Shown one piece after another: positions 35,128 through 55,470 of a stretch of 56,562 nucleotides of DNA. Each line of letters opens with the position of its first letter. Positions within the stretch are counted from its first letter, which is position 1. The translations under genes were made by a program, and so were the position numbers. The notes under the pieces are model-generated. The model was not told the origin of the DNA, ran no database searches, and saw nothing but the letters and a program-made list of their open reading frames with translations. Origin of the DNA: an uncultured Verrucomicrobiota bacterium. Lineage in GTDB: Bacteria > Verrucomicrobiota > Verrucomicrobiia > Limisphaerales > J093. The DNA lies in the NCBI GenBank assembly GCA_964396005.1, contig CAYNCT010000004.1, positions 1 to 56,562 on the forward strand, given 5' to 3'.

Positions 35128-35318
35128 CCGGAACGATTCAATTGAATGCCGGCTGGCCCGTGCCACCGGCCGGTTCGGTCGGGCCACCCGGCCGGCCGTC
35201 AAACGCAGGAGGCTGCCACTGAAGGGTGTGGTGTTTCCGTGCGCACGGCTGGGCGGCAAGTAGCCACCCAGAACGGCCGAGTTGGCCGTTCCACCCAGGA
35301 TCTACTGCATCGTTCCGG
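35128..35318. mobile_element. ~190-bp MITE/REPIN-like dispersed element, copy 1
   Basis: Outer inverted repeat CCGGAACGAT...ATCGTTCCGG. The 146-bp core (35151-35296) aligns without gaps to copies 2 and 3 (27 mismatches to copy 3 by hand count). Confidence 0.8.
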
Positions 35319-35321
35319 ATT

Positions 35322-35354
35322 CCGCGCCGGCGGGTCGCTGACCCGCCGGCGCGG
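35322..35354. terminator. Perfect 15-bp hairpin just after the PA14-gene stop
   Basis: CCGCGCCGGCGGGTC-gct-GACCCGCCGGCGCGG; no U-tract on either side. Confidence 0.55.
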
Positions 35355-35363
35355 TGACGGCAA

Positions 35364-37435
35364 TCAGTTGCGGGCCCGGAAGTACTGCTGCGCCCCCTGA
35401 CTGGCGGGCGCGAGGCGGTACGGGCTGGCGGGATTGCCGGGCACGTCGGTGTAGGGCCCATTCACCGTCGCGGCCTGCTGCAACCGGCCGGTAAACGTGA
35501 CCACGACGTCGGCGCCATCCCGGGCCACCTGGAGGGTGGGCACCTCGGACCCCGCCATGATGCGGATGTTGTCGAAACCTACGATCTCGTTCCACCAGGA
35601 GGTGAACCCGCGAATCTCGATGATCAGGTCGGTGGCTCCGGCGGGGATGGCGTAGGTGACGTCACGGAAGGTCAGCCCCAACTGGTTGCTGTTGCCGTGG
35701 TCAACGTCCACGAAGTATTTCTTCGACCCATCCGGAGCGCTGTAGCGCGCCAGCCGGACGGGAGTGCTATTGATGCCGTTCGGGTAGGCCATGATGTCGA
35801 GAAAATCACTGGTCTCGAAATCCAGGAACGTCGCCGCGAGGGCGATGGTAAGCCTGACGTTGTCCTTGCCAGCCACGTTGACCGGTCGAAGTTGAACCGA
35901 CCGGTAGCCCCCCAGGTCCCCGATTCGCTCGGGCGCCCATTTGTTGAGGCCGGAACCCGCAAAGAACGCCGTGCCCTCGAACCCGTTGAAGGGTCCGCCG
36001 CCGAAGACTGACCCGGGAGGCGTGTCGTTCGGTCCGTTCAGCAGCACCAAAAGCGGCACGACCACCTGCTCGCTGTCGCCCGCGGGGAGATACGAGTCCA
36101 CCGTGATCTGCCCGCTCAACACCACGTTGGCGATGGCGTCGCCCAACAGATCCCACGTGCCGCTGGTGATCGGGCTGGTATCATTTCCCCCCGCTTGAAT
36201 GGAGACGGACATTTCAATGCCGCCCGCGCCCCCGGAGTTAAAGACCGCAACTTCGAAGTCGTACAGCCCCGCCGTGGCGAATTCCGCGTCGCCGTAGCGC
36301 GCCCGATGTGTCCCCGCCGCGTCTTCGACGATCACGTTATCCTCCGGCCCGAAACCGTCGCGGTTCCGATCAATGCGCAAACGGGCGCCGTCATCCATCC
36401 CGAGCGCGAAGCTGTAGCGGCCCGCCGCCTTTACGTTCAGCTTGCCCCGGGCCACCAGGCCCCACACACCCGTCGCGTTGCCCGGCACCGCTTGGTCCAG
36501 CAGCCAATCCCCGGAGGAACCGTCGGAGTAGTCGAGATGGGTGGTCGTCTCCGTCGCCTTGACTGACGGCTTGGTTCCCGCCGCCATGGCGTCCACATCG
36601 GCCAAACTTGCCACCGTGGGGGGAATCACTCGCACCATGGTCGCCACCGTGGTGGCGCCCCCGGGCAGCACGTCCCCCATGAGGTTCCAGTTGGCCGAAA
36701 CGTCGGCCACCGTGAATGCAGCCGGCACACCGGCCGCCACCGGTGACTGCTGGCCACTACCGTGCCGCCTGTTGGCTCGAACGTGGCGGTGGTGCCGATG
36801 CTCGAGGTCAGCATGTCGTCGTGGTCCGCGGCTGAGAACACCAGAACGCCCTGGCGTGCGGTGGCGAAACGCGAGGGAGGACCGCCGGGCCCTTTGACAA
36901 TCACGTCGCCGGGATAAGCGGTATCGGCGGTGGTGCCATCGTCATCGGTCACGTTGTAGCCGAGAGTCGTGAGGTGATCCGCCAGACCTTGAGCCGCCGC
37001 GGCGTTGGGTGAAAAGACCACGGTGGCGTTCGCCTTGTCCCGGGCGAGCCAGCGGATAGTATTGCCGATCAAGCGCAGCGTGTCCGCCGAAGCGCCGCCG
37101 GGTCCGGCGGTCAACGCGCCATCCCAGGCCAGCAGCGCCCGGCGGCCGGCGGTCGGCGCGGGAACGCCCACATACGACACCTCCGAGCTGCGGGCCCAGT
37201 AGATCGGCCCGATCTGATCGCTGGCCGTGCCGTCAATATTCTCCGGGGCGTGTGGCGGCTCGGACTTGAAGCCTCCGGTCACGGTGTAGCGTGGATTCGG
37301 CCCGATCGAGCCATCGGTGTTGAAGTCCTCGACCCACACCGTTTCGGCCAGGCCGGTGCCGGTCGCCGCGGACAGCAGTCCCGCTGCCGACAGGAGCCGC
37401 AGGCAGGCGAGAGTTCGGGTTGGTTGTCCTCTCAT
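35364..37435 (-). pseudogene. Secreted PA14-like domain protein split by a 1-bp frameshift at about 36741-36742 (real or assembly error)
   Basis: The 5' ORF has the signal peptide and reads ...TVVASSH, then junk. The 3' ORF starts VAAGVPAAF. Only CG lies between CAC (36745-43) and GTG (36740-38); adding one C gives HPVAAG and a 690-aa protein. PA14-like GMDDGARLRID / FNSGG; ends QQYFRARN. Confidence 0.75.
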
Positions 37436-37647
37436 AGGTAGTGCTTGTGTTGGTTGTGCCGACGAGCCCGTTCGCGAACGGCGCGACCAGTTCCCGGCGG
37501 CGGTTTAAGCTGAGTTCATGGGGCTTGTAACCCGGGCGACTGCCGCTGACAAGCCAATAACGCCCCCTGCGGACGACGTTGCGGATTCCGGCTTGCGCCC
37601 GCGGCGGGCGGCCGCTGGAATCGGGTTGCGGGCGGCGGCGCAAGCTC

Positions 37648-54500: not shown

Positions 54501-54999
54501 CGGCGAGGTCCTTTACACCACCGGCTACCACTGGAACGAAAAAGGCGAGACCGACTGGACGCAATTCCTCGATGTCCTCGCCTACGATGGCGTCGAGGCC
54601 TCGCTGGTCACGTCGCAGCGCATAGGCGACGGCTGGACCGGCCAGCTCGCCACCGTCGCGGATCACCTGATCCTGGGACGCCACGACTCCGCGAAACCAT
54701 CCACGCGCCTTGAGACGTGGCGCCTCTCCGAGCAAGGCGTCCTGCTTCAGGTCGGATTAACGGAAACGCCCGGCTACCTCGCTCAACTGACCCGGCTCGA
54801 AGAACTCCTACTCGCCTCCGCCGGGTCGGCGGTGACGGTCTGGGACACCACCCAGCCAACCAACCTTCGCCAAGTGGGGCAAGGTACCGGCGACGGCTGC
54901 GTGTATCCAAGCTTGGACAACGGCCTCGCTCGCCAGGGCACCACGCTCTGGCTGCCGCAAGGCGACTACGGGGTCGTTGAATTGAAGCTGACGCCGTAA
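51514..54999 (+). CDS. Large secreted protein with beta-propeller domain (Beta_propel-like)
   Basis: Signal peptide; VVESDIWVVRGDRLY, GEALFATRFDGDRAYIVTFERIDPLWIVDL, GELEVPGWSTYIQP. Confidence 0.88.
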   Translation: MKTLKTRLGLIGGVVAVVATLTLARAAERWEPVAGGVPGWVLDTLAVTFEHAADGTRARFSVTIPNPCHRLTFGEPLRDGRQVIVPCGLEVLLGLACPQVLSTQTGQLDLGPVEPGAGELVIRADGGGLVRFPFDVPARAPGATPEALPVISAVLVEEREVIVTVEAPAGVRRVTLEGRSRLGAGAWVPRAVERLPGSGGTVTFRIAKSETVEMLRVRGDATEALPSRHYEGRSEFQGEAIAGTAANPPADAWRNFDGIAAPEAGGGGSRPVVESDIWVVRGDRLYFFNQYRGLQVVDLTQPDRPVLSGALQIPAAGEQMYLLGDQHAVLLARAGCDGSADPGSQALIVNVAGGAPVIVKSLPVPGYIQESRLVGSALYVASQTYRVVPLPPGRPGQPPGQQWEYGTTVTAFDLSDPTAPVARDSLWFPGYGNVVAATDRFLFIGLQVPTDWWQSEVRLLDISSPDGVMKPTATVRPAGRVDDKFKLNLDGDVFTVISHVWRWEDRDETASVLETFSLADPAAPRKLGQIRVGEGEALFATRFDGDRAYIVTFERIDPLWIVDLRDPTQPRLHGELEVPGWSTYIQPLGDRLVTVGVGGTNNTQVEVSLFDVRDPAKPALLSKVPLGENHSWSEANYDEKAFTVLPEAGLILVPYQGYAPGGHTSRVQLIDLAEDTLQARGVIEHAMQARRATLRGDRILSLSGRELLTVNAADRDRPQVTSNLELAWPVDDVFAVGNHLVLIERGSAWWGGNTPGARVVSATDPNRLLGKLALPLALPITASTRIGDFLYVAQFDPAVAGVEAGKEGEPPPPPNLYLTVIELAALPELRVAGTTATRVEAAGWLGNLKAFVPRPELLVLTGGASGWWRGPWGVDFLPGGRWLPWWWSGAAGGQFFAFDVTDPRAPRFASFTQLSTDNTAWGFGPTFLVNGLFYLSHQRSEFVPDAQAQPPRVPDLTRGRWVTRHFLSVVDFADPANPTLRPPVNLPGQLAAVTHAGEVLYTTGYHWNEKGETDWTQFLDVLAYDGVEASLVTSQRIGDGWTGQLATVADHLILGRHDSAKPSTRLETWRLSEQGVLLQVGLTETPGYLAQLTRLEELLLASAGSAVTVWDTTQPTNLRQVGQGTGDGCVYPSLDNGLARQGTTLWLPQGDYGVVELKLTP

Positions 55000-55046
55000 A
55001 ACACCGACGGCAGCTCGGAAACAGGACAACCGCTGCGAATTTCCGC

Positions 55047-55229
55047 GCGGAGGGTTGGCCCGGCAGCCGGCCCTCCGCCTGCGGGCCGTTCAACGCGAAC
55101 CCGAAAACCAGAGAACCCGCTCTTGGCGTGGGCGGATACGCCGGTGCAGCCAGCCTTTACGACTGGCGTGGATCCCCAAGTGCGGCGTCGCTTTCGACGG
55201 GCGGTGTTTTCCGCGAGGCGCGGAAAACA
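55047..55229. repeat. Cluster of hairpins in a convergent intergenic gap
   Basis: GCGGAGGG...CCCTCCGC (55047-55078), GCCAG-N9-CTGGC, and TGTTTTCCGCG-agg-CGCGGAAAACA (55205-55229, perfect 11 bp, possible bidirectional terminator). Confidence 0.55.
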
Positions 55230-55280
55230 GGCGCCTCGGGGCGGGCGCGCTGCCTGCTCAACCACGCGAGTCGAGCTTGG

Positions 55281-55470
55281 CCGGAACGACTCAATTGAGT
55301 GCGGGGTGGAACGGGCGCCTGGCCCGTTCGGCGGGGCGACCCGCCCGACAGTCGAACGCACGAGTCTGCCACTGAAGGGTGTGCGGCTTCCGTTCGCAGG
55401 GCTGGGCGGTAAGTTGCCGCCCAGAACGGCCAGGTTGGCCGTTCCACCCAAAACCTACTGCACGTTCCGG
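55281..55470. mobile_element. ~190-bp MITE/REPIN-like dispersed element, copy 3 (most intact core)
   Basis: Outer CCGGAACG...CGTTCCGG; inner perfect 11-bp GGGTGGAACGG...CCGTTCCACCC (55304-55449). Ends 1 nt before the TAA of the convergent gene. Confidence 0.82.

Follow-up and report, generated by a model that had tools for sequence, protein, structure and literature searches.

Three palindromic repeats in a stretch of 56,562 nucleotides from an uncultured bacterium of the order Limisphaerales, phylum Verrucomicrobiota (contig CAYNCT010000004.1 of assembly GCA_964396005.1; hereafter the window), are very probably miniature inverted-repeat transposable elements (MITEs) that are mobilised by a transposase belonging to IS1380, a family of insertion sequences (ISs), leave a 5-bp CTNAG footprint and belong to a family widespread in the Limisphaerales and Pedosphaerales. 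Terminal inverted repeats (TIRs), a target-site duplication (TSD) with a target consensus, a multi-copy spread over multiple genomes in genome-specific subfamilies, and ISs with identical ends and the same TSD were all observed, and from these we infer that the IS1380 transposase would mobilise the MITE in trans. The initial annotation of this DNA had called the family undescribed; no description was found in Rfam searches or in literature on CTNAG, on MITEs of Verrucomicrobia or on MITEs of IS1380. As far as these sources show the MITE family is new, and it is an ordinary kind of mobile DNA.

The copies occupy positions 35128–35318 (copy 1), 45132–45322 (copy 2) and 55281–55470 (copy 3), all on the plus strand and all intergenic, as had been annotated. 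Pairwise identity over the whole element was 76–82 %, slightly lower than the 81–83 % that had been counted by hand for the core, although the similarity itself is real; the mean column identity of the three-copy alignment was 84 %. The only long repeat family that a repeat search of the window returned was 184 nt in length, its members being 77 and 83 % identical to the reference copy, and the 26-mer AACGGCCNNGTTGGCCGNTCCACCCA, which is the signature of hairpin D, occurred exactly three times compared with zero in 100 shuffles. The layout that had been read from the letters, with an outer inverted repeat, an inner inverted repeat (GGGTGGAACGG/CCGTTCCACCC), hairpins A–D and a conserved spacer (CTGCCAYTGAAG), was found in the window copies. 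They are 190–191 bp long and have no coding capacity, the open reading frames (ORFs) that cross them being low-GC3 shadow frames only. Start-to-start distances were 10,004 and 10,149 bp; no further copies were found upstream in the window at a period of ~10 kb, and the regular spacing is taken as coincidence.

The TIRs of the element read CCGGAACGATGCAGTTG... on the left and ...CTACTGCATCGTTCCGG on the right, and nearly all aligned copies start with CCGGAACSAT and finish with ATSGTTCCGG. Outside these ends, CTNAG brackets the copies on both sides, as in ctaag-CCGG...CCGG-ctaag. Flank statistics were based on 51 copies. The variable middle base of CTNAG was the same on both sides in 30 of them (permutation p<0.0002), and non-consensus bases at positions 1 and 5 were concordant in seven cases (p=0.0014). 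The flanks are a genuine 5-bp TSD with the consensus CTNAG and not conserved element sequence. A 3-bp TNA duplication of the IS5/Harbinger type was also considered and is ruled out by the concordant non-consensus outer positions, which argue for a duplication of 5 bp rather than 3 bp. Matching 5-nt flanks and a distance of 1 nt to a stop codon had been noted for two of the window copies, and copies 2 and 3 bear this out. The window copies are old, being 76–82 % identical and having TSDs that carry zero to one mismatches or are lost.

ISs with the same ends were found in metagenomes. A scan with the pattern CTNAG + CCGGAACGATGCAGT returned 120 loci, most of them with elements of 120–220 bp and several with elements of 1489–1513 bp that combine the same ends with perfect CTNAG TSDs (CTGAG/CTGAG in L265, CTTAG/CTTAG in L209 and CTAAG/CTAAG in L292); further ~1.5-kb elements of this kind, likewise with perfect TSDs, were found in L295 and L310, and then in L319 and L328. 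Each ~1.5-kb element holds one ORF of 463–473 amino acids (aa). The ORFs scored 214.7, 200.4 and 236.3 bits on the NCBIfam model NF033539 'IS1380 family transposase' (cutoff 180) and matched the Pfam family DDE_Tnp_1_4 (PF13701) at 1e-33 to 1e-40. The partner transposases were 45–80 % identical to one another, and more than 2,272 related protein clusters were found, mostly on ~1.5-kb contigs, as would be expected of a repeated IS. Elements of the IS1380 family have ends that begin with CC and a duplication of 4–5 bp, and the CCGG... ends and 5-bp TSD observed here agree with these hallmarks. IS1380 is a prokaryotic relative of piggyBac and has been used as its outgroup (PMC10813416).

The window copies share ~19 nt with the left end of these ISs (CCGGAACGATGCAGTTGAA; CCGGAACGAT..A.TTGA) and 17–18 nt with the right end (C[TA]ACTGCATCGTTCCGG), and the similarity between IS and MITE ends ~20 nt in, where the core starts. 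The proposal of a non-autonomous element mobilised in trans is supported by the TIRs, the TSD and the ISs with the same ends, and a tblastn search found no transposase in the window. Either a RAYT or a DDE transposase flanked by matching ends had been envisaged; the one found, in the metagenome IS1380-family elements with the same ends and TSD, is of the DDE type. The same TIRs and CTNAG TSD also enclose unrelated cargos of ~190 bp (L086 2356–2544, L068 5993–6180, L007 ~1900–2094 and most of L199–L318), an indication that many ~190-bp cargos without relation to one another share a single IS1380 chassis in environmental bacteria. The unrelated cargos cluster at about 170–205 bp, compared with 1489–1513 bp for the ISs. 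A separate scan of viral contigs with the TIR gave 88 matches, none of which combines a CTNAG flank with a partner end, and these were dismissed as chance.

Alignment of the ends to the ISs also accounts for two features that the initial annotation had regarded as typical of the family, each of them a local variant of an IS end. In the window copies the 'CAATTG palindrome' is a mutated GCAGTTGAA, and the 'compensatory change' described in it, read from two copies, does not hold in copy 2. The 'fixed CTAC' (GTAG on the other strand) sits in ...CTACTGCAT... of the IS right end (C[TA]ACTGCAT). This bears on the proposal that the repeats are REPINs, inverted doublets of repetitive extragenic palindromic (REP) sequences mobilised by a REP-associated tyrosine transposase (RAYT) of the HUH Y1 type. 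The overall palindromic layout, the inner ends, which read G-GTGG-AACGG..hairpin in inverted orientation, and the CTAC of the window copies all resemble such elements; GTAG-type REPs exist in the same genomes, and GTAG repeats have been reported in Verrucomicrobia by Di Nocera et al. (PMC3733652). However, the CTAC belongs to the IS1380-type right end and is replaced by CAAC, CATC or CGAC in other copies, so that GTAG is not conserved, and the element ends match those of a DDE IS. Moreover, a TSD with a copied variable base is not made by Y1 single-strand transposition; to our knowledge, HUH/Y1 transposition yields no such target duplication. No RAYT was found near any copy, and a phmmer search with the Escherichia coli RayT, limited in sensitivity and sampling, gave no match at E<=10 in a set of 4,735 ORFs taken from the window and from 105 Verrucomicrobiota loci. 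A REPIN is, on this balance, an extremely improbable identity for these repeats. GTAG-tagged REP-like palindromes were observed at L044 ~3250–3560, L025 ~330–370 and L040 ~4560–4640 (GTAGGTCAGGCATCCTGCCTGAC; GTAGGACAGGCTTCCAGCCTGTC) and are unrelated to the MITE.

The loci just mentioned come from a scan for the hairpin-D signature in species representatives (one genome per species). At least 105 loci carried it, almost all in metagenome-assembled genomes (MAGs) of Verrucomicrobiota (Limisphaerales, Pedosphaera, 'subdivision 3'), and the family is not limited to the three copies from which it was first described. It comprises more than 100 copies across about 30 Verrucomicrobiota MAGs (Limisphaerales/Pedosphaera), often dozens per MAG and, among the matches listed, many at contig ends, and an nhmmer profile built from the window copies recovered full-length ~190-bp elements in the scanned loci. 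Copies within a genome had identities of 0.80–0.94 (maximum 0.989) compared with 0.61–0.76 between genomes, a pattern expected from amplification within a genome, and the subfamilies are genome-specific and their positions non-orthologous. The element is absent from the orthologous intergenic regions of other species, although these regions are too diverged to give clean junctions. Over a conserved gene the window is 80 % identical to L043 at the nucleotide level, which fits its probable origin from a Limisphaerales-like organism. The repeat was also seen in MAGs labelled Akkermansia, Klebsiella (CAYZJP01), Polyangium and Bifidobacteriaceae (L001, L002/L021/L025/L074, L067 and L103). As these bins carry a Verrucomicrobiota-type repeat, their taxonomic labels look unreliable. 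A mini element of 75 bp in L012 (6226–6300) consists of both TIRs and a single hairpin (GGTGGAACGGCCAAGTTGGCCGTTCCACC), with the TSD CTAAG/CTCAG.

Several observations weigh against an IS1380-mobilised MITE. Copy 1 has no TSD, its flanks CCCAG and ATTCC being unmatched. A tblastn search of the window and of 690 kb of Verrucomicrobiota sequence (the 105 loci listed) found no IS1380 transposase, and no TIR pairs 0.2–4 kb apart were found in the Verrucomicrobiota loci scanned for the partner IS. The IS-bearing metagenome contigs are weakly tied to the lineage of the window, through a ComM-like neighbour with 71 % amino-acid identity to that of the window and through other matches of 70–77 % at the nucleotide level; on this weak evidence the IS1380 transposase may reside in this lineage. 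A clean pair of empty and filled sites was not obtained, as an exact-protein look-up of the gene beside copy 2 returned three near-identical strain contigs, all of them filled; the contigs with identical genes are from JGI metagenomes. Finally, the core is not IS sequence, outlasts the TIRs and is much better conserved than they are, which is not what a plain neutral model of a MITE would lead one to expect.

The core is a GC-rich sequence of ~145 bp with four hairpins (A–D) and contains palindromes such as GGCCARGTTGGCC, GGCGGCAAGTTGCCGCC and GGCCAAGTTGGCC. In 39 copies, hairpins A–D and the inner and outer inverted repeats were supported by RNAalifold as well as by an explicit count of pairs, and a six-helix model had 91 % of cells paired compared with 28–49 % in slid controls. 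In the outer helix, formed by the family ends that can also be written CCGGAACSATKC... and ...GMATSGTTCCGG, 76.5 % of cells were paired. Compensatory changes were present in hairpins B and C, few in number and at the subfamily level, and are equally expected for DNA palindromes as for RNA. Searched by nhmmer with the family hidden Markov model, the IS-bearing loci L319–L329 gave no match to the core. The element therefore did not arise from its partner by simple internal deletion: the interior does not derive from the parent IS, the ends alone being IS-derived.

The core might then have a history of its own, in which an older four-hairpin sequence spread independently of TIRs, or was retained as a selected structure, and in which IS1380 ends later captured some of the copies, which were then amplified as a MITE. 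Such a composite origin, which is possible though on balance unlikely, would refine the MITE explanation rather than exclude it, and the missing match in the IS-bearing loci is one point in its favour. Another is the distribution of identity between genomes, where hairpins A (0.92) and C (0.91) stood above the TIRs (0.70) and the spacer (0.48); the 0.97 of hairpin D is forced by ascertainment, because every copy was found via an exact match to D, and the set may likewise favour well-kept cores. Both TIRs were at random level in 23 of the 92 pattern sites with full context, and among these 23 sites hairpin C was kept in 74 % and the inner-left arm with hairpin A in 78 %, nearly intact. This would fit an older core, but some 'TIR-less' copies keep a decayed TIR on one side (L042, L056, L057) and are perhaps merely old MITE copies. 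TIR-less pairs within a genome had a spacer identity of 0.68 compared with hairpin identities of 0.94–0.98.

A composite origin is also favoured by a compact core of ~96 nt, with hairpins A–D and neither TIRs nor spacer, that lies in frame in metH of two species (L041 3050–3160 and L003 2600–2720). The host ORFs are 1312 and 1326 aa long, and the core is located in the linker between domains of methionine synthase. In-frame insertion in genes does not appear to be widespread: nine other candidates proved to be shadow ORFs or upstream open frames, and only metH is real. The inner ends are conserved and REP-like, reading GTGG plus a hairpin beside A and D, and are indistinguishable from a plain inverted repeat. 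Against independent spread of the core, the core-only copies had no TSD and no target motif, their palindromes extended beyond the core no further than with mismatched partners, and a RAYT, as described above, was not found.

A related and rather doubtful suggestion is that the conserved hairpins are an exapted or independently selected module, such as a binding site for a host protein or an RNA structure at 3' ends, and that the IS1380 ends merely distribute it to gene ends across the Limisphaerales and Pedosphaerales. If true, this would explain hairpins that are 91–98 % identical despite decay of TIRs and spacer, as well as the copy that survives in metH. The conservation may thus reflect constrained hairpins, an older captured repeat or, given the ascertainment through hairpin D and the half-decayed TIRs of some copies, a milder artefact.

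To return to the IS1380-mobilised MITE, its insertion sites show an association with stop codons. At 19 of 100 ends the TSD contained the stop codon of an ORF of 100 codons or more, compared with 2.4 % of random positions, and in the metagenome set this was so at 22 of 124 ends, compared with 7.6 % of unoccupied CTNAG sites. The 1-nt distance between copies 2 and 3 and a stop codon is accounted for by the fact that CTNAG often holds a stop codon, which is regenerated by the duplication, together with selection against intragenic insertion. Orientation relative to the abutting gene was random (9 sense and 10 antisense), and this lack of bias speaks against the location being due to a strand-specific role as RNA. 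Copies 1 and 3 each follow a stop codon and are followed, on the strand of the gene, by a terminator-like hairpin and its T-run, and their position before such a site suggests that the element is probably transcribed there as part of a 3' untranslated region (UTR). The initial annotation had raised the role of a structured 3' UTR, of which the position alone is borne out. No terminator-like site was found inside any of the three window copies and no U-tract follows any hairpin of the element, so that it is not an intrinsic terminator.

These results also bear on a reading of the repeats as non-mobile genes for structured non-coding RNAs, or as cis-regulatory elements of the 3'-UTR or terminator type. 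Copy 3 folds strongly relative to shuffles (z = −6.5 and −4.3 on the two strands), and such folding, the excess of paired cells over slid controls, the compensatory changes in B and C and the location between stop codons and terminator-like sites are what would be seen in a structured RNA. However, the compensatory changes do not separate RNA from palindromic DNA, no hairpin is followed by a U-tract and orientation relative to genes is random. No Rfam family apart from a tRNA matched the window at its gathering score, and none matched the elements in L073 and L019 at E<=1. Genome-specific subfamilies at non-orthologous positions, TIRs and a TSD are likewise contrary to a non-mobile gene, and this explanation is considered very unlikely.

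The family can be compared with several known systems. Like members of the IS1380 family (e.g. IS1380 and ISEcp1), the partner ISs score above the NF033539 cutoff, are ~1.5 kb in length, hold one ORF and have CC ends and a 5-bp TSD. In contrast, the window holds a non-coding derivative only, the target is the specific near-palindromic CTNAG, and the partner transposases, at only 45–80 % mutual identity, form a diverse environmental clade. With other bacterial MITEs (Correia/NEMIS of Neisseria, ERIC, RUP, Nezha and Chunjie) the elements share small size, lack of coding capacity, multiple copies, TIRs shared with an IS, a TSD, intergenic location, probable co-transcription with neighbours and strong folding. 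They differ from these MITEs in an interior that is an unrelated four-hairpin module rather than a deletion derivative of the parent IS, in a 5-bp TSD (CTNAG) that overlaps stop codons, and in internal hairpins that are better conserved than the TIRs. The family resembles the REP/REPIN–RAYT systems in its nested palindromes, in the GT[AG]G-like tetranucleotide that adjoins a hairpin at the inner ends, in its many copies and in lying outside genes, and is set apart from them by its TSD and DDE-type TIRs, by the RAYT that was not found and by a window GTAG that belongs to the IS end.

Rickettsia palindromic elements are found in frame within ORFs (summarised in PMC3733652), and the compact core in frame in the MetH inter-domain linker of two species is similar to them; unlike those elements, it was found in only one such gene, and the window copies are all intergenic. 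The CTNAG target is shared with PIF/Harbinger–IS5 elements, and the consensus C-TNA-G has been discussed for NuwaII elements (PMC4482050). In the present family, in contrast, positions 1 and 5 are part of the duplication, which is of 5 bp, and the partner transposase is of the IS1380 type. IS5-like ends (GAGCCTGT...; GAGCCTGTYTGAAA...) were observed to abut the MITE at shared CTNAG sites in L054 (~4880–4908), L065, L100, L008, L036 (~2150–2180) and L040 (~4620–4645), which suggests that regenerated CTNAG sites attract side-by-side insertions.

Among the window copies, copy 1 (191 bp) has both TIRs intact and a degenerate hairpin A. Its left TIR, CCGGAACGATTCAATTGAA (35128–35146), aligns to the left inverted repeat of the IS1380-type ISs, and its right TIR, CTACTGCATCGTTCCGG (35302–35318), is identical at 17 of 17 positions to the right inverted repeat of the IS in L328. 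A terminator-like hairpin followed by a T-run lies just past the copy on the minus strand at 35087–35099, in a GC-rich hairpin at 35085–35125, and a strong GC-rich hairpin at 35319–35356 flanks the copy on its other side, where it immediately follows the stop codon of gene 35364–36740 of the minus strand. The neighbours of copy 1 are a GlcNAc 2-epimerase-like gene and a gene for a weakly PA14-like protein. Copy 2 (191 bp) has partly decayed TIRs (ACGGAACGAT... and ...CCGCTCCGG). Its left TSD, CTGAG (45127–45131), holds the TGA stop codon (45128–45130) of an unassigned 167-aa gene (44627–45130), and its right TSD, CCGAG (45323–45327), matches the left at four of five positions. Both genes beside it, the 167-aa gene and a gene for an esterase/SGL protein, are on the plus strand.

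Copy 3 (190 bp) lies between convergent genes for a beta-propeller protein and an unassigned 352-aa protein. Its TSDs, CTTGG (55276–55280) and CTTAG (55471–55475), also match at four of five positions, and the TTA at 55472–55474 is the TAA stop codon of the minus-strand gene 55472–56530, downstream of which a terminator-like hairpin followed by a T-run is located on the minus strand at 55231–55248, just past the copy. Alignment to the IS ends places the left TIR, CCGGAACGACTCAATTGAG, at 55281–55299 and the right TIR, CTACTGCA-CGTTCCGG, at 55455–55470. Between them, on the plus strand, lie the left arm of the inner inverted repeat (GGGGTGGAACGG, 55303–55314), which pairs with 55439–55449; hairpin A (GAACGGGC-GCCTG-GCCCGTTC, 55309–55329); hairpin B (GCGGGGCG-ACC-CGCCCGAC, 55331–55349), whose stem has compensatory changes family-wide; the subfamily-specific central spacer (55350–55401); hairpin C (CTGGGCGGT-AAGTT-GCCGCCCAG, 55402–55424); and hairpin D (AACGGCC-AGGTT-GGCCGTT) with CCACCC, the right arm of the inner inverted repeat (55425–55449).

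Elsewhere in the window, three direct repeats of ~114 nt (48886–49235), 83–90 % identical and with spacings of 103 and 133 nt, are located close to where two ORFs begin, 48988–50826 on the plus strand and 49267–50805 on the minus strand. A tRNA gene at 25606–25676 on the minus strand was the only match in the window at an Rfam gathering score.

In the mechanism proposed for the family, ~20 nt of an IS left end and ~18 nt of its right end surround an unrelated core of ~145 bp, and an IS1380-family DDE transposase of 463–473 aa, encoded elsewhere, would bind both CCGGAAC... ends. It would insert the element into CTNAG by a 5-nt staggered cut and thereby leave a duplicate of CTNAG on either side. 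As CTNAG often contains a stop codon (CTGAG, CTAAG or CTTAG, or their complements on the other strand), the duplication would restore the stop; the upstream protein would be unchanged, and an insertion at the end of a gene would thus be harmless and survive. Harmless insertion at gene ends would in turn bring the element, in both orientations, into 3' UTRs and the spacers between cistrons.

An orphan repeat thereby becomes a defined system, with an IS1380-family transposase, a TIR of 18–20 nt at each end and a 5-bp CTNAG target. The repeats can now be masked and annotated in the fragmented MAGs of Verrucomicrobiota whose assemblies they break. The differential conservation of the core provides a testable candidate case, from a phylum that has been little studied, in which structures carried by a MITE may have been exapted. 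More generally, a target that bears a stop codon, combined with a duplication that restores it, would give a transposon a simple route to saturate the ends of genes without harm.

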